From positions 32,001 to 96,000 of IMG/VR virus record IMGVR_UViG_3300029258_005166: a stretch of DNA of 64,000 nt; one strand, written 5' to 3'. The notes below the pieces were generated by a model. It made no database searches and was not told where the DNA came from. It worked only from the letters and a program-made list of their open reading frames with translations. The position numbers were made by a program, and so were the translations under genes. Each line of letters starts with the position of its first letter. Position 1 is the stretch's first letter. Positions 6,136 to 24,976 of the stretch are shown here, piece by piece. The stretch is from a virus.

Positions 6136-7058
6136 CCAGTTTTAGATGGATAGAAGATGATCTGTCGGATTTCGTTCATATTGGGACTATCGGTTATGCA
6201 GTCGTTTAGATTGATATTTTGACCATCCCAATCATAAACCCTGGCTCCGTGCGGAAGCGGCCAAAGGAAAGTCGCTATATCCTCTATGTATTTGAACAAT
6301 TCTCCCGGATTCTCTTTTGTTCCCACCAGATTGACTTGATTTTTTTCCACCCATTCGGTCGCTGCTTTGCATTTCGATTGATCTTTATCTGGAGAGGTTA
6401 CATCTCGAATTGTCAGATGCTTGACATCGTATTGCTTACATGAGGCCTTAAGAGCAACTACTTCATCGATGCAGTCAATACCTCCTTTTACCGAGGTGAC
6501 GTTAATACGGACATCAAAATCAAGATCTCGCAGGAATTGGACCGTATCCCAAATCACGAACAACGGCTCTTTAGAACCATGCCGCATAATTTGGGCATTA
6601 CGAAAACTATCGTAATGTGTGATAGAAAGACAAATCAAATTAAGACCTAATTTTCTCCACTCACGAAGATCGTCCTCCATTTTTTGAAGTCTAATCCCAT
6701 TTGTTTGAAGTTCCACAAAGGAGAATGGGATATCATCCATGATAGGATTCGCCCATAAAAACCGTCCACAGCGTCGGGTAAATCTTCCAATCTGCCACAA
6801 CTGATAAGGCCAGAGTATCCCGTTCAATCGGTCCAGATATTGGAATACCGTATCCGGGTAAAGTGTCGGTTCCCCTTTGCCCGTAAAGAGAATGGTCTGG
6901 GCATTACCCTCTTTCGCCAACAATACGAACTTCTTAAACCTACTCCAGTTCGGGGTGGCGGGCATCTTCTCGATTCCCGTCATCTTGGAAATGCAATAAG
7001 GACAGGAAGCATTGCATTTCGCCCCACCGGTCATAACGGAACAGGAGAAGATTTCCAT
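6090..7058 (-). CDS. Radical SAM protein
   Basis: CNASCPYC (CxxxCxxC), TGKGEP and QTNG motifs. Confidence 0.9.
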   Translation of the reverse strand: MEIFSCSVMTGGAKCNASCPYCISKMTGIEKMPATPNWSRFKKFVLLAKEGNAQTILFTGKGEPTLYPDTVFQYLDRLNGILWPYQLWQIGRFTRRCGRFLWANPIMDDIPFSFVELQTNGIRLQKMEDDLREWRKLGLNLICLSITHYDSFRNAQIMRHGSKEPLFVIWDTVQFLRDLDFDVRINVTSVKGGIDCIDEVVALKASCKQYDVKHLTIRDVTSPDKDQSKCKAATEWVEKNQVNLVGTKENPGELFKYIEDIATFLWPLPHGARVYDWDGQNINLNDCITDSPNMNEIRQIIFYPSKTGWRIRHDWKYEGAVL

Positions 7059-7441
7059 CAGAATGGCGGCTCCTTACTTTCGTGAATATGCCCACAATCT
7101 TGGCATTTCCATCGAAATACAGCATTCGGATCTCGCACAAGAAAGGTATTCAAATAGTTGCCAAGATATTTGATAAGGACAATCAATTGTTCGGTTTCAA
7201 GAGTAGAATCCGACTGTAATTCACAAGGTCTATCGCAATATTCGCCCAGACATTCGATTTTTTGCTTCCTGGGAAAAAGATCACCATTAGCGATTTCATC
7301 TTCACATTCGTCACTCCCAGGACATTGAGAGCGGCACCAGTTACAGACAAAGAATCCCTTGAGGTCAACCTTCGGAGGCCCATTCCATGAGTTTTCTTGA
7401 GATGAGGGGCAATGCTTTTCGGAGACCATCTTCATCCTCAA
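7058..7441 (-). CDS. Cys-rich hypothetical protein, probably zinc-binding
   Basis: Several CxxC motifs. Confidence 0.55.
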   Translation of the reverse strand: MRMKMVSEKHCPSSQENSWNGPPKVDLKGFFVCNWCRSQCPGSDECEDEIANGDLFPRKQKIECLGEYCDRPCELQSDSTLETEQLIVLIKYLGNYLNTFLVRDPNAVFRWKCQDCGHIHESKEPPF

Positions 7442-7646: not shown

Positions 7647-7917
7647 TTTTCTCCTTTTGCTTTTGTCTTTTCTCGCAGGCTTTTTGGGCGGTTTCTTTCT
7701 TAGTATGTTCGCTGATAATCTCCCAGCATTTATTATTATTTAGTTCCTCAGCGTACCATTTATCAGCCCATTTTTGCTTCTTCGGGGCTTGCTCCCCATA
7801 CCTTATATGAGAAAAAACTACCCGATATTTCCCGCATTTCGTGCCCCAAATCTTGCGATCTGCCACTATCGTTTGGTCCTTTCGACAGCGTTTGTTCCAG
7901 ACCAGGGGTTTAATCAT
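7495..7917 (-). CDS. Hypothetical basic protein
   Basis: 140 aa ORF with ATGA overlap to the UDG stop. Confidence 0.55.
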   Translation of the reverse strand: MIKPLVWNKRCRKDQTIVADRKIWGTKCGKYRVVFSHIRYGEQAPKKQKWADKWYAEELNNNKCWEIISEHTKKETAQKACEKRQKQKEKNAAKLERLEKKKSRRRRISRTRARTTKQTRATKHTKTDSKIERSKRRRAS

Positions 7918-8526
7918 GAAATAGTGCCTCCATTAACTTGATCCCTTAGTTTGAGCAGAAGTTGAATGTCGTCCCATGTGTCCTTTTTCGCTTTGGGATT
8001 GCGAAGCAAGTATGAAGGATGATACCACACCAAAAACCAATAGCGGCTCCCAGTCTCATAAACTTTTCCTCGCAATGGTCCCAACGCTTGTATTTCTCCC
8101 AGAAAATTCTCTGCCGCATATTTTCCAAGACAGACAACAAACCTCGGATTTATTATTTCAAGCTGAAGATCAAAGATCGGCCTGCAATTCTTGATTTCTT
8201 CGGGTTTGGGATTTCGATTGTCAGGTGGCCAACATTTCAAGACGTTCATCTTTCTCAGGGTCCAAACCTCCACTTTCCAAAATGTTGTCGAGCAATTTGC
8301 CTGCCCGACCCACAAAGGCTAATCCCTCTCTATTCTCGTCACGACCTGGAGCTTCTCCCACCAACACAATATCTGCATCGGGATTTCCTGACTTCGCTAA
8401 CTGATTGTCTTCCTCGTAATTTATATTGTCAAAGACAATTTGTGTTCTGTTAGCAACTAATTCTGGACATTTTTGACATTCACAAACTTTTGCTTTTAAC
8501 AATTTAAGCATTTCTAGTTTTGTCAT
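7914..8526 (-). pseudogene. Family 4 uracil-DNA glycosylase with an element-derived N-terminus and a frameshift near 8248
   Basis: GEAPG..E..EG..FVGRAG is in ORF 8221-8526; NVLKCWPP.NRNP...C and HPSYLL are in ORF 7914-8315. Confidence 0.85.
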
Positions 8527-8531
8527 TTTGA

Positions 8532-8774
8532 TTATTCCTGCTTAAACGGTTTACCGTCATCTTCTTTCCAAAATCGTCCATTCAAAAAGACAAATTCAGT
8601 TCCTAATTGAACAAATGCCTCATCACCACGCTCATTGAAATATCGTGTGATAACATTAGGAGAATTAACTGGTCCATTGAGGGAAGGAGTAATTTTTACC
8701 TCTTGTGAAACATATAACTTATCTTTGTTGCCATCTGCATCAATTATGGGTATAATTCTCACTTCGTTTTGCAT
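8532..8774 (-). CDS. Hypothetical protein (element cargo)
   Basis: 80 aa ORF in the element operon. Confidence 0.6.
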   Translation of the reverse strand: MQNEVRIIPIIDADGNKDKLYVSQEVKITPSLNGPVNSPNVITRYFNERGDEAFVQLGTEFVFLNGRFWKEDDGKPFKQE

Positions 8775-9400
8775 GAATCGTTCTCCATCTTTTTATTTAT
8801 AGCATCTACTAACTTTGTCATAGGACGCAAGGTATCAACAGGCAATACATAATTTAAGTGACCGTTGCCTTTGCGTCCTGGTTCTACGTTGCATTTTTCG
8901 ACATCTTGCTTTAAGGCAAATCCTGTCATAACAACAATTGCGGACTTCTTCTCTCGATTTTCTTGTTCAATATATGCACATACGAAAATGTCTTTATCAA
9001 GAGGAATCTTCTTTCCCCATTCATTTGTGTGATATATCAACACATCCTCACGGTATCGCATCGCACATTTCATATCAGCTTTATATCCGAAAATTAAATT
9101 GTCTTGCCGATCTCCACCACGCTTATATTCCGTATCAACAGGCAATCCAGTTAATTTACCAAAAGCCATTTGTGCTAAAATGCCAGTTCGGGCAGGTTTG
9201 TATTTATCATCTTTTGTTGCTCCTAAACCTGCTCCATAAGCCCCTGGTTTCGAGTTTCCCCAAAAATTACCTCCTTGTGAGGCTCGCTCGCATTCTTCAT
9301 ATTCTTGCCCCTCGACTTCTACTACAATACATTCTTTTTCTCTTCCATTAAATTGCCGTTTCGCAATTTGTGGCTGAAAAATCTTCGTTGGATGATACAT
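8759..9400 (-). CDS. Putative PD-(D/E)xK restriction endonuclease
   Basis: GDRQD...ADMK motif; overlaps the 3' end of the methylase; start MYHPT inferred. Confidence 0.5.
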   Translation of the reverse strand: MYHPTKIFQPQIAKRQFNGREKECIVVEVEGQEYEECERASQGGNFWGNSKPGAYGAGLGATKDDKYKPARTGILAQMAFGKLTGLPVDTEYKRGGDRQDNLIFGYKADMKCAMRYREDVLIYHTNEWGKKIPLDKDIFVCAYIEQENREKKSAIVVMTGFALKQDVEKCNVEPGRKGNGHLNYVLPVDTLRPMTKLVDAINKKMENDSCKTK

Positions 9401-10343
9401 TAAAAATCCTTTCATTAAGAACATCCTTGATTATACATCCACTAGGATAAATTAGCAATTCCATTTTTGTTCTTGTCAGCCGTTCGCCTGTCTTCTTATC
9501 TTTCAAGGCTGTAATGCTATAATTCACTCCATCAATTTCTTCGATAAATGCCCAATTATATAAATCCCTAATTTCTGGACAATCATCATAAGATAAGACC
9601 CATTGATGTTTCGTATTTTTTAATGAAGTAGCCAAACGATGATGGTCTTCCTCGGTGAAGCCATGTTGATATAAGTCATTGCCTTTCACAAAATACGGTG
9701 GATCGAGATAAATTACAGCATCGTTTTCGGTGTCATCAATAACATCAGCAAAATCCAGGCAAGTGCATCTGTTCTTTCTAATTGAAAGCCCAACCATTTT
9801 TGTATGAAGTTGGTCAATTTTCTTGCAAATATAATCAGGCGACCAACGACAATCAATTGGATACTTAACTTCATCAGTCATACCACGTCCAGCAATATTT
9901 TCTTTTTTTCGCCCACCGAGCGGGCCACCTGACATTGTGCCAAGACCTGAATATGAAATTTGATGGATTGCTAATTTCATAAAACCATATTGAGCGATTT
10001 CTTCGGCAGTTTTGGGTTTTGTTGGATTTTCCGCAGTAAGTTCTGTTTTGAAATCATCAAACTTTTTCACTGATGGCGTGAATTTATTAACCAATTTTTT
10101 CAAAAAGTCAGGATGTTGAATAACGGAAGTCCAAAGGCAGGAAATGCCTAAGTCATTATCATTGATCCATAGTTTCTTAATCAATGTATTATCTTGAAGA
10201 ACTTTCAATCCGATACTGCCACCACCAAAGAAAGGTTCTCGATATTCAAGATTATGTCCGTTTGCAATTGTGTCTAACCGAGCGGCAATTTGATTTCTTA
10301 ATTTACTTTTTCCGCCTGGATACCTAAAAAAGCTCATTGTCAT
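9348..10343 (-). CDS. Dam/D12-class N6-adenine DNA methyltransferase
   Basis: RYPGGKS, EPFFGGGS and YLDPPY motifs; AGGAGA RBS before ATG 10343. Confidence 0.92.
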   Translation of the reverse strand: MTMSFFRYPGGKSKLRNQIAARLDTIANGHNLEYREPFFGGGSIGLKVLQDNTLIKKLWINDNDLGISCLWTSVIQHPDFLKKLVNKFTPSVKKFDDFKTELTAENPTKPKTAEEIAQYGFMKLAIHQISYSGLGTMSGGPLGGRKKENIAGRGMTDEVKYPIDCRWSPDYICKKIDQLHTKMVGLSIRKNRCTCLDFADVIDDTENDAVIYLDPPYFVKGNDLYQHGFTEEDHHRLATSLKNTKHQWVLSYDDCPEIRDLYNWAFIEEIDGVNYSITALKDKKTGERLTRTKMELLIYPSGCIIKDVLNERIFNVSSNEDFSATNCETAI

Positions 10344-10371
10344 GGTTCTCCTAGTTCTTATTATATTTGTT

Positions 10372-12444
10372 TTATACTTCTGTTGCAACGGCAACTTCTA
10401 ATTCCTTAACTGAAAGAAATTGTCCTTTCTCGTTGCGTTGTATTTTTTGCTTTTTCTTACTTTCTGATATTTTCTTACGAGTTTCTTCATTCATTGGCTT
10501 TCCCAGACGGCAATTCCTACGTCCGTTGTATTTTTCATTGATCGCTTTAAATTCTTTTGAGTCCAAAATTTGTTTCGGAATAAATGGATTGACCGAGATT
10601 ATTTCAACTCGACATATTTTACAGATGTTGTTTTTCTCGCCAGTCGTGTCAAAATGCAATTTGATTTCTTTAAGATGAGGACGTAACAAAATTGCTTTGT
10701 CTTCACCGCTCGCTTGTAATACGTCTTTGCAAAGAGTTTCAATGGTCGAAGCCATTTTCAATAAATGTTCTTTGGCACGACGATATTCTGGCACTAAAGA
10801 AACCAGATTCGCTTCTAGCACTTCAATTTCTAGTTGTTTATCCTTGATGAATTGTTTAACATCGGGGTCGTCTGCTATATCACTGAATTTCAAAATCAAT
10901 TTTTGTTTTTCAGATTTTAGATCAGCGATTTTAGATTTTACCGACTGACTGGCTTCATCAAATATTTCTTGATATGTAAGCTCGAAATAATCAGCATTGG
11001 CATCAGTTGCCGTATATTTCCAAGCACGTTTTTGGAAATTCTTGGTCTTTTCTTCGTCGGTTTCGCCAGGAAGGTTTGTCAAAATAAATCGGTACATCTT
11101 CTGGGCGACTTCGCCGCAAAACTCATTGGCATTGGATGACTTCACTTTCTCACAAAGAGCGGTATAACTTTGTCCAAGCCATTTAAGCCAATTGTCGATT
11201 ATTTCATGGATAACATCGGCTTTGACAGCACCACATTTATTACAGCGATAATTTTTTGACGGCTTCCATTTTGTGCTATTGGAGACATAAAGAATATCTT
11301 GACAATTATCACAGAACAAAAAACACTTCGCCCAAAAATCACCTAAATTAGCTCGTCGTAATCGTTTATAATCAGTTTGATTGTCTTTGAGGTATTTGTT
11401 TATTCTATCCCATTGCTCCACCGAAATAATGCGAATGGACGTTCGTTCTTCTTCGGTTAGAGGGACGACAACTATCTCGGTATTCAACCGAGCAGTTTTG
11501 GCTTTCGAGACTTGATTATCAATTGGATAACCCTTGTAGATTGAATTTGTTAATATGCACTTGATCGTCTTGGCACCCCACTGCGAACTCATACTTTTGA
11601 TGTTTTTCGCATTCAAAATACAAGCAATTTCGTGCGAGGTTTTATAGTTTGGAGCATCAGCCAGATCAAAGATTTCTTTTATAATTTTGGCACGTTCGAC
11701 ATTGATGATTTCTGTTTTTCGGTCGCCTTTTTCCATTGACGGGGCAGACGTAAGCAACACCCAATTATGACCATCTTGAACCCATTGATCGTGATATGCT
11801 TCTCGCTTGCCATCTGGTAATTCTTTCCATCGCATCAATGCGTAATTGGCACGACTTCTGGTATTTTTAGGTGGATCAGTCCAGTGTCGTCCCTCACATT
11901 TTTTGTAGCCATCGTAAATGACCTTATATTTGAAGGTTCCTTCACGATTGAACACAATCCAGTCGTATCCATAAGCACACATTTTGCCAGGGCTAGATTT
12001 TTTCTCAATGGTTTTGCGACGGGCAATTTGAGTTCTATATCCTTTCTTTTCTATTTCGGCAGAAGAAGCCAGTTGATTTTGCACTGTTCTCATTGTTGAC
12101 GCAAGATCGTTCATATCAACAATTTGTTCATCATTGGCAGTGATGATTTTTATATCCAACTGCTTCAAAGAGGTGATGAAAAACCCAATTTCGGCAGGAT
12201 TTTTGAAGCCAATTCTATCGTGATCTCGATAAATGACATATTCTGGTTTGGTGGTTTTTAATTTAGAAATTAAATTTTGTGCTTCATCGAGCATGTCCCA
12301 GCGTGGTACGCCATTTAATGTTATTTCATCAATCATTTTCCAACCCATTTTGCTAATAAACGGATCAATTATCATGTCTTGATTAGACAGTTCCATCGGG
12401 TCAGAAACATTGGATTTTCTTCTTATTTTAACACAAGTAGTCAT
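10372..12444 (-). CDS. Large serine recombinase (integrase)
   Basis: N-terminal resolvase motifs RRKS...Q and DRIG; AYGY; recombinase domain IL.N.IYKG; zinc ribbon CDNC/YRC; coiled coil; NUMOD3-like tail. Confidence 0.88.
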   Translation of the reverse strand: MTTCVKIRRKSNVSDPMELSNQDMIIDPFISKMGWKMIDEITLNGVPRWDMLDEAQNLISKLKTTKPEYVIYRDHDRIGFKNPAEIGFFITSLKQLDIKIITANDEQIVDMNDLASTMRTVQNQLASSAEIEKKGYRTQIARRKTIEKKSSPGKMCAYGYDWIVFNREGTFKYKVIYDGYKKCEGRHWTDPPKNTRSRANYALMRWKELPDGKREAYHDQWVQDGHNWVLLTSAPSMEKGDRKTEIINVERAKIIKEIFDLADAPNYKTSHEIACILNAKNIKSMSSQWGAKTIKCILTNSIYKGYPIDNQVSKAKTARLNTEIVVVPLTEEERTSIRIISVEQWDRINKYLKDNQTDYKRLRRANLGDFWAKCFLFCDNCQDILYVSNSTKWKPSKNYRCNKCGAVKADVIHEIIDNWLKWLGQSYTALCEKVKSSNANEFCGEVAQKMYRFILTNLPGETDEEKTKNFQKRAWKYTATDANADYFELTYQEIFDEASQSVKSKIADLKSEKQKLILKFSDIADDPDVKQFIKDKQLEIEVLEANLVSLVPEYRRAKEHLLKMASTIETLCKDVLQASGEDKAILLRPHLKEIKLHFDTTGEKNNICKICRVEIISVNPFIPKQILDSKEFKAINEKYNGRRNCRLGKPMNEETRKKISESKKKQKIQRNEKGQFLSVKELEVAVATEV

Positions 12445-12619
12445 CTCCGAATTTTCCTTTTTGATACCTTATATAGAGTATCATTTACAGAAATTTTCAG
12501 AGAAAATCCGAAAATAATTTGACCTATAAAAGAACAGTCGGAGAAGGCAGAAAGTGTCTAAAAATACCTGATGCGGGAGTGGTTTAGACCAGAAGGGTCA
12601 AGATAGCCGAATAAAACGG

Positions 12620-12748
12620 CTAATTAGAGAAGCAAGGATTGCCCCGACCTAGAACAGTCTGAATGCGAAACTCAACAAGTTCCTTACACTTCTTGCACTT
12701 GGCTATCTTCTGCCCCAGTTGTTTTAGTAGATCTTTTTTCGTCGTCAT
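12620..12748 (-). pseudogene. Displaced original 5' end of the UDG gene
   Basis: Hand translation MTTKKDLLKQLGQKIAKCKKCKELVEFRIQTVLGRGNP|CFSN*, matching the family 4 UDG CxxC..L...R...V.G.GNP start. Confidence 0.85.
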
Positions 12749-13517
12749 ACTTGTAATTTACCTTAAATCCATTTTCTTGGACGAAAAGGAGGGTGTTAAG
12801 CATGGAAGCTGGCATTCCCATGTCGCTCCAAAAACCAGATATGTAGTTTACGCTCATCTTTCCCAATTGGAAATACTCATTGTTGATGTCGGTGATTTCC
12901 AATTCGCCTCTGTCACTGATATTCAAACGATTCGCGATTTCATAGACATGCCGTGTGTAAAGATACAGCCCAGTTACCGCCCAATTCCCCTTAGGCTTTC
13001 TAGGCTTTTCTTCAATGTAATGTCTCTGGCCTGCCACCGTGTATACGCCAAATCGTTCGGGATCGGGAACTTCTTTTACAAAAATCGAGGCAAGCGGCGG
13101 ATCATAGCCACGACGGTGATTGATTTCAAATATATCGAATTGCTTTTTGAAAAGGTCTTCGTAGAAATTGTCGCCCAAAATGACGGCAAAGGGATCGTCT
13201 TGAGTAAAATCTTCTGCCAATTTTAAGGCAGATGCGATGCCTAATTCAACATGTGCAACATCTTGAACCTTGTAGGTAAATCTCGCCCCGAAGTTCCATC
13301 CATCCCCCAGATTTTCGATTATAGATCCGCTGTGTTCCCTACTGGAAATGACAAGAATATCTGTAATACCACTCCGAATCAACGTATTGATCGGATAGAA
13401 AATCATCGGGACGGCTCCATCATTTCCCGAATACAAAGGACACAGATGTTTGTTGGTTGCTAGGGTCGAAGGTCGCATCCTCGTTCCATAGCCACCTGCT
13501 AAAATAACCCCTCTCAT
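12684..13517 (-). CDS. rfbA: Glucose-1-phosphate thymidylyltransferase-like nucleotidyltransferase
   Basis: GVILAGGYGTRMRP, LGDN, EEKP, SDRGELEITD and WSDMG motifs. Confidence 0.9.
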   Translation of the reverse strand: MRGVILAGGYGTRMRPSTLATNKHLCPLYSGNDGAVPMIFYPINTLIRSGITDILVISSREHSGSIIENLGDGWNFGARFTYKVQDVAHVELGIASALKLAEDFTQDDPFAVILGDNFYEDLFKKQFDIFEINHRRGYDPPLASIFVKEVPDPERFGVYTVAGQRHYIEEKPRKPKGNWAVTGLYLYTRHVYEIANRLNISDRGELEITDINNEYFQLGKMSVNYISGFWSDMGMPASMLNTLLFVQENGFKVNYKYDDEKRSTKTTGAEDSQVQEV

Positions 13518-22107: not shown

Positions 22108-22790
22108 TGGAGTGTCCGCTAACCGGTAAACCTTGCGAAAAACCTAAACCTTATTCGATTACCGAAATAGAAAATGGGCAAGTGTACACTTTTAAACTTT
22201 GTGAAGATTGCATTCTTGCCTATATCGAAAAACAGAAAAGCAATCCAGTTCAAAAGACGGTAAATGTGATACAGAAACTCGTAAAAACTCTTGGCACATT
22301 ATTGGGGATGTTAACCAAGACTAAACCCGAACCCGAACCCGAACCTGAATCCAAACCCGAAAAGATTCTATCATCAATGGATATTCGTTGTCCTGTTTGT
22401 GGTTCAGCATTTACGGACTTGGCATCTAAAATGAAATTTGGTTGTCCCCAATGCTTCGAAACATTCTCAGGGCCAACTATTCATCTTGTTAAAACGCTTC
22501 AAGATGGTTTAAAACATGTAGGGAAGGTTCCCAAAACACATGGAGTAAGTCATAAATCGAAAAAGAAAATCAACCCTGCCAGATATCTTGCCATCAAACA
22601 AGGCCAGATGGAAGATGCGGTTGTTGCAGAAGATTATGAGAAGGCCGCTTTAATTCGCGATCAGATGCAGATTTTTGAAAATCTCATTCATTCGTTCAAA
22701 GAAGCATCAGAGCAAAAAGATCAACAGCGAATTGTTGTCACTTATCGTGAGATTCGCAAATTTGTGGATAACGATCAGGACTACGGCTAA
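22107..22790 (+). CDS. McsA-like protein (CxxC repeats plus UVR domain)
   Basis: LCEDC, CPVCG, GCPQCF, HVGKVP and AV.AEDYEKAALIRD motifs. Confidence 0.8.
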   Translation: MECPLTGKPCEKPKPYSITEIENGQVYTFKLCEDCILAYIEKQKSNPVQKTVNVIQKLVKTLGTLLGMLTKTKPEPEPEPESKPEKILSSMDIRCPVCGSAFTDLASKMKFGCPQCFETFSGPTIHLVKTLQDGLKHVGKVPKTHGVSHKSKKKINPARYLAIKQGQMEDAVVAEDYEKAALIRDQMQIFENLIHSFKEASEQKDQQRIVVTYREIRKFVDNDQDYG

Positions 22791-24976
22791 CCTTCTATTG
22801 CGTCCATGAGTTTTCTTGGATCTATAATACCATATCCTTCAAAAAACTTTCTTCCCGCGAGCTTTCTATTGCGAATCGGAGTTGTATGGGTTCTGAGTAC
22901 CTTGCGATAATCATCAACTGTTTTCAATGTTAGTTGATCGGTCTTTCTGCTGTAAGCCAACAACAATGCTGCCACTCCACAGGCAAACGGAGCCGCCATA
23001 CTGGTTCCCGAGAGAAAGGCATACCAATTGTCGGGGACCGTGCTGAAAATCCTTCCGCCCGGTGCCATAAAATCTAATTGTTTACCAGTATTTGAAAAAT
23101 CAGATCTATCTAGGTCTTCATCAATAGAGCCAATCGAAATTGTTTCGGGATAAGCCGCTGGGTAGAAAACTTCGTCTGTTCTGCCCGCATTGCCAGCCGC
23201 GACGAAGCACGGGATTCCTCTCTTGGCCGCAAACTGTATGGCCTTACGAACCTGTTGAATGGGTCGTGGGGCTCCCAAAGACAAACACATCATGTCGGCA
23301 CCTTGAGTGACTGCCCAACGAATCCCTCTGGCTACATTTTCTAAGTTTCCATCGCCCTTCTCATTGAGAACCTTTACCGGCAATACCTTAGATTTGGGAG
23401 CCACACCGACCGTGCCGATCTTATTATCCAGGGCACAGATGATACCCGTGACGTGTGTGTTTGATACAAAGTGACCATTTGCAATATAAGTATTTGTTTT
23501 TTGGGTTGTGAAATCGTAAAAATTTCCTTCAAAAACTTCCTGATGGATATTTTTTATTCTTCTTATGGATCTTCTTTGACTGGTTTGATTTGCCAATATC
23601 CTTTGTTTTTTGTGCGGTGAAGCAATCCACTTAGCAATTTCCGCTGGCAATTTGCTGAAAACCACATTAAATATTGGAAATTTAAGGTTATTTTTTCCTC
23701 TGAATTTGTTTTTGTACCTAACAATACCAGCAGATATTCCAATTCCATTTAAGATTGCAGATAGATGTTCTGCAAAATCTTTTGAAACAGTAGTAACTCG
23801 ATTACCCGTGTTAGTTCTTGAAATACACCCATCACCATCAATAACACCACCAAGAAATGCTTGAATGATAGCAAGCGGTGATTTTCCTATAAATTCAGGC
23901 AAAGTCTGGAAATAAGTTTTTCCTTTTGATTTAATTCCTACCGCTTGCAATAGCAAAACAAGTCTTTTTGAATTTATCAACAATCTCGGACAGCGATTCT
24001 TTGGACAATCTATTCTACAATTGAATCCCAATTCTTTAAGAAATCTTTTTGCTTGTTCTAAGATCGCTTCATTTTTATTTGTTATGTCAACTCGATAGTT
24101 GCGATCATGAATGATATGGCCATCGGTCAACACTAAGCCACAAATATATGCCAATTTTTCATTTGCAAATTCGGTAGACATAACCCATTGTTTTTGCCGA
24201 CACTTTTTGCAATTTGATTTCGGGATTTTACATTTTGGGATATGCCCACAATTTTTGCATCTCCAAACTTCATACGTGATTCTGTAGGGCTCGCTTGAAA
24301 GGCTAACTGAACTATTGGATAAAATCAGCCTGTCTTCTTTGTCTAATTCATCTGCTCTTTTCTTGAAAATTTTTGACCTGCGTCCTTTTGTCATTCTCGA
24401 AACGATTACCGGGTGCCACGGTGTTAACTTCAATTCAAGTCCACCTTCCATCTCAATACAGATTAAATTGGTTTTTACTGGCATTTTGTGAACGTGCGTT
24501 ACAGTATCAACCACAGTTTTTTCTGTTTTTAGATCGAAAGAAATGGTTTTGATTCCTAGAGAAGAAACATCACGTAATTTTGATGTATACCCATCTGAAA
24601 ATTTTTGGTTTTGTTCCTGTACGGGCAACCGATTATAGAGTTCTTCTATGGTTTCTGTACCGCAAAAATTAGTTTGGATGATCGATGATGGATGGACACA
24701 TCCATGTTGATTGTCGTCCCAAGGTTTTCGTCGAGGATTGATGAAATTGACTCCGGGAAGAAGGTTTGCTTTGAGATCAGGATGATCTAAATCACAGCCT
24801 GTATCCAGAACAGCGACTTTTACACCCTCACCCTTAGTGATTTTCCATGCATCGGGCAAATCAAAAGTGCTTATACCCCAGCCCAAGTGCTGTCGGATTT
24901 CCTGTATGGATACAATCTCCTCCCTTTTGAAAGGAAATAGACTGCACTCTCCTTTCTTCTTTTTCTTAGCAGCCAT
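22787..24976 (-). CDS. S8 subtilisin-family protease containing an intein
   Basis: Catalytic motifs VAVLDTG, HG|THV, AAGN and SGTSMAAP. Confidence 0.92.
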   Translation of the reverse strand: MAAKKKKKGECSLFPFKREEIVSIQEIRQHLGWGISTFDLPDAWKITKGEGVKVAVLDTGCDLDHPDLKANLLPGVNFINPRRKPWDDNQHGCVHPSSIIQTNFCGTETIEELYNRLPVQEQNQKFSDGYTSKLRDVSSLGIKTISFDLKTEKTVVDTVTHVHKMPVKTNLICIEMEGGLELKLTPWHPVIVSRMTKGRRSKIFKKRADELDKEDRLILSNSSVSLSSEPYRITYEVWRCKNCGHIPKCKIPKSNCKKCRQKQWVMSTEFANEKLAYICGLVLTDGHIIHDRNYRVDITNKNEAILEQAKRFLKELGFNCRIDCPKNRCPRLLINSKRLVLLLQAVGIKSKGKTYFQTLPEFIGKSPLAIIQAFLGGVIDGDGCISRTNTGNRVTTVSKDFAEHLSAILNGIGISAGIVRYKNKFRGKNNLKFPIFNVVFSKLPAEIAKWIASPHKKQRILANQTSQRRSIRRIKNIHQEVFEGNFYDFTTQKTNTYIANGHFVSNTHVTGIICALDNKIGTVGVAPKSKVLPVKVLNEKGDGNLENVARGIRWAVTQGADMMCLSLGAPRPIQQVRKAIQFAAKRGIPCFVAAGNAGRTDEVFYPAAYPETISIGSIDEDLDRSDFSNTGKQLDFMAPGGRIFSTVPDNWYAFLSGTSMAAPFACGVAALLLAYSRKTDQLTLKTVDDYRKVLRTHTTPIRNRKLAGRKFFEGYGIIDPRKLMDAIEG
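23459..24700 (-). mobile_element. Intein (414 aa) with LAGLIDADG endonuclease
   Basis: Starts CVHPSS; block B LTPWHP; GLVLTDG and GVIDGDG; ends YDF...YIANGHFVSN followed by Thr+1. Confidence 0.92.

Follow-up and report, generated by a model that had tools for sequence, protein, structure and literature searches.

Why does the family-4 uracil-DNA glycosylase (UDG) gene of a large phage start more than four kilobases away from its own body, with a second, different start fused to that body? The locus lies in IMG/VR virus record IMGVR_UViG_3300029258_005166 (135,444 bp), of which we analysed bases 32001-96000, a stretch of 64,000 nucleotides (nt) called the window here; the element and UDG features described below are all on its minus strand. 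CheckV puts the record's completeness at 25%, which suggests a phage genome of about half a megabase, and phage genes flank the element on either side (for example, a T4 gp15-like tail-sheath stabiliser gene at 1181-2194). We find that positions 12638-8384 (4,255 bp) are very probably an integrative mobile element of a huge phage, inserted by a large serine integrase into the phage UDG gene, at the AA with which the Asn codon of its G-x-G-N-P motif begins. Integration would create a full-length chimeric UDG, because the last codons of the replacement 5' end are the other attachment (att) arm, and in this particular copy a later 11-nt deletion has frameshifted the UDG body, so that the gene is dead.

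The two halves of the interrupted gene can be recognised from an uninterrupted relative. When the 101-amino acid (aa) chimeric open reading frame (ORF) of the window was used as a query against 5.8 billion proteins, with longer proteins requested, we recovered P0011, an uninterrupted UDG of 193 aa present on nine contigs, which reads ...TVLGRGNPEADIVLVGEAPG... / ...KIAKCKRCKELVEFRVQTVLGRGNPEADIVLVGEAPGRDENREGLPFVGRAGKLLDNIL... across the join. The window's UDG stub is identical to P0011 at 27 of 38 residues and the whole body at 114 of 149, whereas the element-encoded N-terminus agrees at only 12 of 37. Because stub and body match P0011 and the element N-terminus does not, stub and body are two halves of one phage gene. 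The original prediction, made from the letters of the window, had placed the UDG start (12748-12636) about 4.26 kb from the rest of the gene, in agreement with the 4,255 bp between the two AA dinucleotides. Its proposal that joining at a repeated AATCC restores an in-frame UDG is borne out by P0011, which is also the intact UDG that it suggested seeking among relatives, and the divergent UDG N-terminus that it described at the element's far end does lie in frame with the body (8380-8526). Scans of viral contigs returned only a relative at 34% identity (L014) with P0011 as the query, and nothing useful with the C-terminal half of the UDG.

The same design recurs in other phages. A tblastn search of GenBank phages gave one record, LR756511.1, a 595,163-bp uncultured phage. 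Its locus (L012) comprises a UDG stub that terminates in ...TVFDSGNPNFSN*, an integrase with 79% identity to that of the window, a Dam methyltransferase, a MutH/Sau3AI-like restriction endonuclease, an 81-aa ORF (84% identical) and an intact chimeric UDG of 201 aa (TIGR00758, 1.1e-55, above cut-off), the replacement N-terminus of which is 80% identical. The host parts of the two phages are less alike (stub 53%, body 51% and 43%). Identity steps exactly at the GNP junction, with 79-84% for element parts versus 43-53% for host UDG parts; the NTP-transferase beside the element, where relatives have one, is at 41% as against 79% for the integrase. Four further full-length UDGs (P0006, P0007, P0008 and P0010) carry the replacement N-terminus on differing bodies. 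The six chimeric UDGs share 73-98% identity in their N-termini (mean 82%) and 39-61% in their bodies (mean 51%), and the N-terminus is the more similar part in all 15 pairs. The replacement N-terminus of the window is 80-94% identical to those of P0006-P0010, which have an intact reading frame, unlike the window copy. Only LR756511.1 was close when the phage collection was searched with the chimeric UDG; the other 13 records were below 60% identity.

Six distinct DNA loci hold a relative of the integrase: the window, L012 in LR756511.1, L008 (matched exactly by L010 and L011 over 15.2 kb), L009, L007 and L004. A UDG fragment stands at the element boundary in six of the six, so the expectation of integrase homologues beside udg fragments held throughout. 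In L009 a stub ending ...TVFGEGNASSYN* is followed by the integrase start, and in L007 the integrase adjoins a UDG body. The neighbours differ: an NTP-transferase in the window and L008 (41% identical to each other), and Thg1 and Nudix genes in LR756511.1 and L004. The guanine-plus-cytosine (GC) content of the element is 0.370 against 0.44 in its flanks, and it is also below that of the flanks in LR756511.1 and L004.

Along the minus strand of the window, the order is NTP-transferase (13517-12684), UDG stub, about 190 nt of non-coding DNA, integrase, methyltransferase, 221-aa ORF, 80-aa ORF and second UDG start. The individual features are as follows.

12748-12620, minus strand: orphaned 5' end, formerly the start of the phage's family-4 UDG gene; a 42-codon ORF (MTTKK...LGRGNPCFSN*) with 38 host codons up to GNP at 12636, then four element codons and a stop
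12615-12665, minus strand: attL, with host arm, central AA (12640-12639) and integrase-proximal element arm TCCTTGCTTCTCTAATTAG, which has in-frame stop codons
12605-12621, minus strand: short hairpin, AGCCG...CGGCT, immediately within the end of the element; at the aligned position, relatives carry CCGTCC...GGACGG and a T-run
12462-12483, minus strand: palindrome TGATAC-N10-GTATCA around CTCTATATAA, 18 nt upstream of the integrase start; candidate promoter or operator
10372-12444, minus strand: large serine integrase, 690 aa, full length (by Pfam, alignment and fold)
9348-10394, minus strand: cargo, Dam-family (D12 class) N6-adenine DNA methyltransferase, 348 aa (PF02086, 3.1e-21)
8759-9424, minus strand: cargo, 221-aa ORF, candidate nuclease, in the position of the MutH/Sau3AI-like restriction enzyme of LR756511.1
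8532-8774, minus strand: conserved backbone ORF, 80 aa, 84% identical to the 81-aa ORF of LR756511.1
8380-8526, minus strand: element-encoded replacement UDG N-terminus, 49 codons, with a UDG-like start at 8526, five bases past the 80-aa ORF
8360-8410, minus strand: attR, with integrase-distal element arm CAGTTAGCGAAGTCAGGA, central AA (8385-8384) and host arm TCCCGATGCAGAT
8250-8379, minus strand: first part of the UDG body, continuing the frame of the replacement N-terminus (DADIVLVGEAPG...GLDPEK; Pfam UDG positions 2-48)
8221-8250, minus strand: frameshift lesion, with the break between 8250 and 8249; frame A reaches TGA at 8223-8221
7914-8249, minus strand: second part of the UDG body, up to the stop and in a different frame (MNVLKCWPPDNRNP...; Pfam UDG positions 54-140, 8.9e-18)

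The attP and attB sites of serine integrases are imperfect dyads of about 40-50 bp with little in common outside a central dinucleotide. Both ends of the element have the structure expected of serine integrase att sites, and they place the probable crossover. The attL-side junction reads GGTCGGGGCAATCCTTGCTTCTCTAATTAG on the minus strand. On the attR side, the junction reads TTAGCGAAGTCAGGAAATCCCGATGCAGAT; the frame of MTKLEMLKLLKAKVCECQKCPELVANRTQIVFDNINYEEDNQLAKSGNP continues there into DADIVLVGEAPG, with the fusion at the Asn codon of GNP, and the replacement N-terminus runs via ...QLAKSGNP into the UDG body. The core common to both junctions is AATCC (5 bp); in LR756511.1 the core is 13 bp. 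The element ends form an inverted repeat around AA with 12 of 15 matches, as originally described, and this dyad symmetry is reached by only 3 of 63,960 window positions and by 2 of 59,685 pairs at equal spacing. When the ends are rejoined as attP, symmetry over 24 bp is 15/24 centred on AA, versus at most 11 at eight other offsets; the copy in LR756511.1 gives 16/24 at AA versus at most 10 elsewhere. The attB dyad is weaker (9/24). AA is present at all eight junctions, and the bases that follow differ (AATCC, AACCC, AACGC). Variable bases after a constant AA fit a crossover at positions 1 and 2 of the Asn codon, the point itself being inferred from symmetry. A palindromic AT crossover, which would allow both polarities of insertion, was also considered and rejected: three junctions read AAC, not AAT, and the symmetry centre is AA.

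By its sequence and predicted fold, the recombinase is a bona fide large serine integrase, as the original prediction had named it. It matches Pfam Recombinase (PF07508, E = 1.9e-10, residues 250-354); taken alone it is weak on Resolvase (E = 0.0018, 18.8 bits versus a cut-off of 23.3) and has no match to Zn_ribbon_recom (PF13408). A profile search of 1.84 billion representative proteins yielded 154 matches at E ≤ 1e-3 and 16 at E ≤ 1e-30. We aligned 37 sequences, namely the window integrase, five close homologues and 31 of the 150 matches listed, the last picked for near-full length (at least 610 aa). Recombinase is matched by 37 of them, Resolvase by 25 and Zn_ribbon_recom by 22. R9, S11 and R77 are invariant across this alignment, down to 17% identity (consensus YxRxSxDxQ), and Q22, R48 and the zinc-ribbon cysteines C378, C381, C401 and C404 are at least 90% conserved.

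An AlphaFold2 model of the integrase (predicted local distance difference test [pLDDT] score 83.9) has a catalytic domain, a long helix, a recombinase domain and a zinc ribbon with a long helical insert, in that order; the long helices at 409-577 lie between beta segments, as in a zinc ribbon with an embedded coiled coil. In Foldseek, att-bound full-length serine integrases rank highest (9y66_A, E = 4.6e-17; 9dxd; 9dxh), with further matches to PhiC31 (9rah), Bxb1 (9iu2), 4kis and TP901-1 (3bvp). About 660 columns align to full-length integrase structures, and the catalytic domain resembles those of TP901-1, Sin and gamma-delta. The sequence profile of the integrase found no match in PDB, where the fold search succeeded. 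PADLOC and NCBIfam gave no match for the integrase, the 221-aa ORF or the 80-aa ORF, and PHROGs gave no family for six proteins. Only five close homologues of the integrase occur in 5.8 billion proteins. A pattern scan with the integrase alignment, of limited sensitivity, found no relative in one genome each of 185,579 prokaryote species. Scans of viral contigs gave nothing useful with distant relatives of the integrase and, with the L007 integrase, the L004 contig only. Judged from their sequences, the integrase and both att arms of the window copy look intact.

How can an integrase-binding arm be read through as protein without destroying the enzyme? We aligned 55 family-4 UDGs, picked from 120 matches listed. 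The G of the GNP motif is present in 55 of 55, the N in 49 and the P in 40. Two residues separate the preceding V-F from that G in 49 of the 55, versus 14 in the five chimeras aligned, which thus carry an insert of 12 residues. The end of this insert (QLAKS-GNP in the window) is the translated integrase-distal arm. Apart from these five chimeras, none of the 55 UDGs has the insert; P0066 also has 14 residues at that place, but of unrelated sequence. Four Cys columns, which we take to be the Fe-S cluster ligands of family-4 enzymes, are conserved in 52-54 of the 55 UDGs, and the replacement N-terminus provides the first two. A model of the chimera P0007 has a pLDDT of 93.7 and a predicted template modelling (TM) score of 0.91, with only residues 31-50 lower (71-72), and superimposes on the Thermus family-4 UDG 1ui1 with a TM score of 0.86 and a root-mean-square deviation of 2.0 Å. 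The model thus presents the chimeric UDG as a plausible working enzyme with an extra loop.

The window copy no longer makes such an enzyme. Its UDG body lies in two frames: frame A (8526-8221) covers Pfam UDG positions 2-48 and the other frame (8315-7914) positions 54-140, and the pieces score 6e-13 and 8.9e-18 on PF03167. The closest intact relative reads ...GLDPEKDVYIMNVLKCWPP... where the window has GLDPEK, a break, and MNVLKCWPP, with DVYI absent or recoded. The lesion between 8250 and 8249 amounts to -11 nt relative to P0011, by a codon count at the protein level; compared with LR756511.1 and L007, where one codon is absent, it amounts to -8 nt. Logan contigs from four of four sequencing runs contain the same 5.2 kb with no differences, lesion included; the lesion is therefore not one assembler's slip, although the runs may all represent the source sample. 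Read from its codons, the window UDG is a pseudogene with the element either present or excised, since the frameshift in the body leaves neither the chimeric nor the excised form functional in this phage. We place the 11-nt deletion later than the integration. The original prediction treated the body as one gene to which the replacement 5' end is fused, and overlooked this split. Its description of a UDG-targeting, gene-restoring element is therefore upheld in part: targeting and a replacement 5' end are supported by P0011, LR756511.1, the chimeras and the six loci, and restoration in this phage is contradicted by the frameshifted body.

Beside the lesion, the motif KCWPP (8215-8235) departs from the family consensus KCRPP, the Arg of which is at least 90% conserved in the 55 UDGs. 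P0011 and P0012 also read KCWPP; a Trp common to intact relatives is a trait of the lineage, not decay.

At the other end of the element, the integrase-proximal arm is conserved in LR756511.1, L008, L009 and L004, and its stop codons terminate the stub after four or five codons in five of five junctions. Stop-bearing arm and hairpin may together insulate the integrase from UDG transcription, to judge from their placement; the hairpin was not flagged by a generic terminator scan. The palindrome upstream of the integrase is kept in LR756511.1, L009 and L007, and was lost by deletion in the decayed L008. CTCTATATAA is not enriched in the window (3 matches versus 3.38 expected), and promoter-like sites there are not above shuffles. 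The stub overlaps the 3' end of the NTP-transferase ORF (12684-13517) by the last 65 nt of the latter (12684-12748), in another frame. The NTP-transferase of L008 is 32 residues shorter than its window homologue and does not overlap the L008 stub.

Between these ends, the element consists of the stop-codon arm and hairpin, the integrase, a swappable methyltransferase-plus-nuclease cassette, the 80-aa ORF and the replacement UDG 5' end. The methyltransferase matches PADLOC PD-Lambda-5_B (2.2e-51) and MTase_II (2.1e-39), and TIGR00571 below its cut-off (9.7e-18). For the 221-aa ORF, no match was found in Pfam, PADLOC, NCBIfam or PHROGs, and Atlas gave only viral hypothetical clusters. The gene in its position in LR756511.1 is MutH/Sau3AI-like (PF02976, 4.5e-09; NF040973, 2.9e-13; PADLOC REase_II, 3.3e-11), and this positional analogy makes the 221-aa ORF a candidate nuclease. 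Cargo differs between the two copies: the methyltransferases share only 26% identity, and the 221-aa ORF is unrelated to the 211-aa ORF of LR756511.1. Such a restriction-modification cassette could be directed at co-infecting genomes that lack the methylation, or could make losing the element costly. The 80-aa ORF matched no family in Pfam, PADLOC, NCBIfam or PHROGs and only unnamed or weak clusters in Atlas, and a viral-contig scan with it gave nothing useful. We regard it as a candidate recombination directionality factor; a complex prediction of the 80-aa ORF with integrase residues 365-640 scored 0.20 against a mark of 0.32, which weighs neither way.

These parts suggest the following course of events. 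A circular element with a contiguous attP (distal arm, AA, proximal arm) would meet attB in the UDG gene of a co-infecting phage, and the integrase would swap strands at AA. The old UDG 5' end would be orphaned and the element's 5' end would take over, leaving UDG behind packed, co-directional element genes. Since the chimera is co-directional with these tightly packed genes, it is probably co-transcribed with them. Serine integrases recombine attP with attB on their own, and need a directionality factor for excision (attL x attR), a role for which the 80-aa ORF or a phage protein would be candidates. The cargo restriction-modification genes would act in competition or as an addiction module.

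Several observations weigh against an element of this kind that is still on the move. All sequences compared are metagenomic assemblies; P0011 and the chimeras P0006, P0007, P0008 and P0010 are known from their protein sequences. The original prediction had suggested searching for empty-site and circle junctions, and the assembled contigs of the four runs contain no excised, empty-site or circular form, nor any differences, joints or loose ends; note that contigs drop rare variants. No excision factor was identified. The frameshift in the window's UDG body is one sign of decay, and other copies show more. In L008 both the stub and the integrase carry frameshifts, the integrase breaks off near residue 409, and there is no UDG body within the 15-kb locus read. 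The stub of L004 terminates in ...GEGNPSFSN*; beyond it and the element arm there is only a truncated, C-terminal integrase remnant, and no UDG body exists anywhere in the 254-kb record. Such decaying copies may mean that the element family is often a dead end. Lastly, the integrase gene of L007 and L004 points the opposite way relative to UDG, for which two explanations are set out below.

The decayed loci hold further features of their own. Right after the truncated integrase of L008 lies a 75-aa ORF (8308-8535, minus strand) ending ...NADCNGSANIGRKVIRNE, which presumably resembles the C-terminus of a TnpB/IS200-605-type protein; an insertion sequence may have truncated this integrase. In L004, the integrase remnant is separated from the element arm by an ORF of about 160 aa (6946-7429, plus strand). 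This ORF has 44% GC in a phage of 55-57% GC and no Pfam match, and is possibly cargo of a second element clade.

Could the element be the relic of a single ancient insertion that was fixed and vertically inherited, a domesticated block of restriction-modification system and remodelled UDG that no longer moves? The lack of excision products in the contigs of the four runs, the decayed integrases of L008 and L004 and the small family, with its five close homologues confined to huge-phage-like contigs, would all agree with this. However, vertical inheritance does not account for a backbone that is 79-84% identical beside phage genes and UDG halves at 41-53%, nor for differing neighbours (NTP-transferase versus Thg1 and Nudix), cargo that varies between copies and two integrase orientations. 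UDG bodies that are 76% identical occur with either form (P0010 and L007, 99/131), and the window integrase is full length with all its catalytic residues. We therefore consider a single ancient insertion improbable.

The original prediction also raised a regulated switch, in which reversible excision and integration would toggle the phage between two UDG isoforms with differing N-termini. Both forms would be in frame at the join, and the stub ORF is still open in the window, LR756511.1, L009 and L004, although an open stub of 38 codons is weak evidence. This idea found no support. Both forms share the frameshifted body in the window phage, the L008 stub is itself frameshifted, a UDG body is missing from the L004 record and from the part of L008 read, and no joined forms occur in the contigs of the four runs. 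A switch is thus highly unlikely. That the integrase and att sites are the phage's own lysogeny module, integrating the whole phage into a bacterial udg gene, is barely credible: serine integrases do usually serve temperate phages and the att arms resemble UDG coding sequence, but the half-sites are 4.26 kb apart and flanked outward by halves of one phage gene with phage genes beyond, there is no contiguous attP, the 135-kb record has one integrase copy and one UDG locus, and the scan of prokaryote species, limited as its sensitivity was, found no integrase relative.

A mobile element that enters phage UDG genes thus remains the reading that we prefer, and L007 and L004 bear on how it enters. 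Both of their integrases contain an insert of 20 residues, and over the stretch preserved in L004 the two are 78% identical. Either the whole element was inserted in reverse polarity or its interior was inverted, and there is evidence both ways. Upstream of its integrase, L007 has DNA homologous to the integrase-proximal side of the window element (43 of 55 columns, with a score of 48 versus a shuffle maximum of 31), and in the alignment a TCGGCTAT..TTGAC block stands at about equal distance from the core; both favour reverse-polarity insertion of the whole element. The outer bases of the L007 arm resemble the integrase-distal arm of LR756511.1 (24/31), which favours an inverted interior, or convergent selection that kept a frame open. 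The UDG body of L007 continues from only a short open frame, LTGKRQIADNDCQLKKFGNP, in which the cysteine pair is absent. For serine integrases, a complementary central dinucleotide reverses the polarity of insertion.

Taken more broadly, these loci permit a wider picture, of which we are slightly more doubtful than convinced. Hyperparasitic mini-elements would move between huge phages during co-infection, using the G-N-P DNA of family-4 UDG as a near-universal landing site, with an arm translated as a tolerated surface loop and exchangeable restriction-modification cassettes as weapons or addiction modules; the sister clade of L007 and L004 may insert in the opposite polarity via a complementary dinucleotide.

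Some phages of this group seem able to dispense with UDG, or have its gene at another place. In L002 (IMGVR_UViG_3300042453_005121, a 150-kb relative; region 8001-9165), an NTP-transferase 63% identical to that of the window is followed directly by a Nudix-like gene on the other strand, with no UDG anywhere in the record. The window phage also carries a second, unrelated selfish element: a 729-aa subtilase (22787-24976, minus strand; Peptidase_S8, 1.9e-49) is split by an intein (Intein_splicing, 5.2e-15) with LAGLIDADG homing-endonuclease domains (LAGLIDADG_3, 6.8e-19).

Integrative elements driven by serine integrases are textbook material for bacterial chromosomes. In the full-text literature, with most subscription journals outside our coverage, we found no serine-integrase element that resides in phage genomes or targets udg, nor one that enters a phage gene and brings its own repairing 5' end. 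The element would add a layer of parasitism to huge phages and would account for the entry of restriction-modification cassettes into these phages and their movement between them. The use of one arm both for integrase binding and as coding sequence is an unusual evolutionary solution. Furthermore, this small, divergent integrase clade comes with several natural attP/attB pairs, in which attB differs at codon wobble positions, and so offers a data set on site tolerance.

The nearest parallels are SPbeta (SprA/SprB) in spsM, skin in sigK (Bacillus, Clostridioides) and A118 in comK (Listeria), where a large serine recombinase likewise places an element in a protein-coding gene at a short core. 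Elements of that type are prophages or prophage remnants of 48-134 kb. Precise excision with a directionality factor is reported to rejoin their target gene (PMC5499854, PMC5025042, PMC3556126). They sit in bacterial chromosomes and leave the gene broken while integrated, whereas the element described here sits in a phage genome, measures 4.3 kb and brings a replacement 5' end designed to keep the gene whole.

Copies of the displaced part of the target, which spare its function, are also carried by tRNA-targeting tyrosine-integrase elements and by phage 21/e14 in icd. Those systems use tyrosine recombinases and long segments of identity, and they replace the 3' end. In contrast, the UDG element has a serine integrase and a 2-bp centre, replaces the 5' end and has an att arm that is translated as an extra loop. 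A Thermus-phage preprint (10.64898/2026.04.20.719267) deals with tRNA-targeting elements of bacteria and is not relevant to the UDG element.

PLE satellites of Vibrio cholerae phage ICP1 are likewise small elements with a large serine recombinase, and they rely on a lytic phage for their life cycle. Their directionality factor can be a phage protein, as two sources report (PMC7145576; 10.1101/2024.08.21.608926). PLE integrates in the bacterial chromosome and blocks the phage, whereas the element described here resides in the phage genome. Inteins, group I introns and homing-endonuclease genes resemble it as selfish DNA in conserved motifs of phage genes that keeps the host product intact. However, inteins and introns rely on splicing and double-strand-break homing, and no splicing or homing-endonuclease Pfam domain occurs in any ORF of the element, which keeps the gene whole via a new 5' end. 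Mobile elements hosted by very large viruses are known from the giant viruses of eukaryotes, as transpovirons and integrated virophages; their machinery is unrelated to that of the UDG element, and they belong to a different domain of life.

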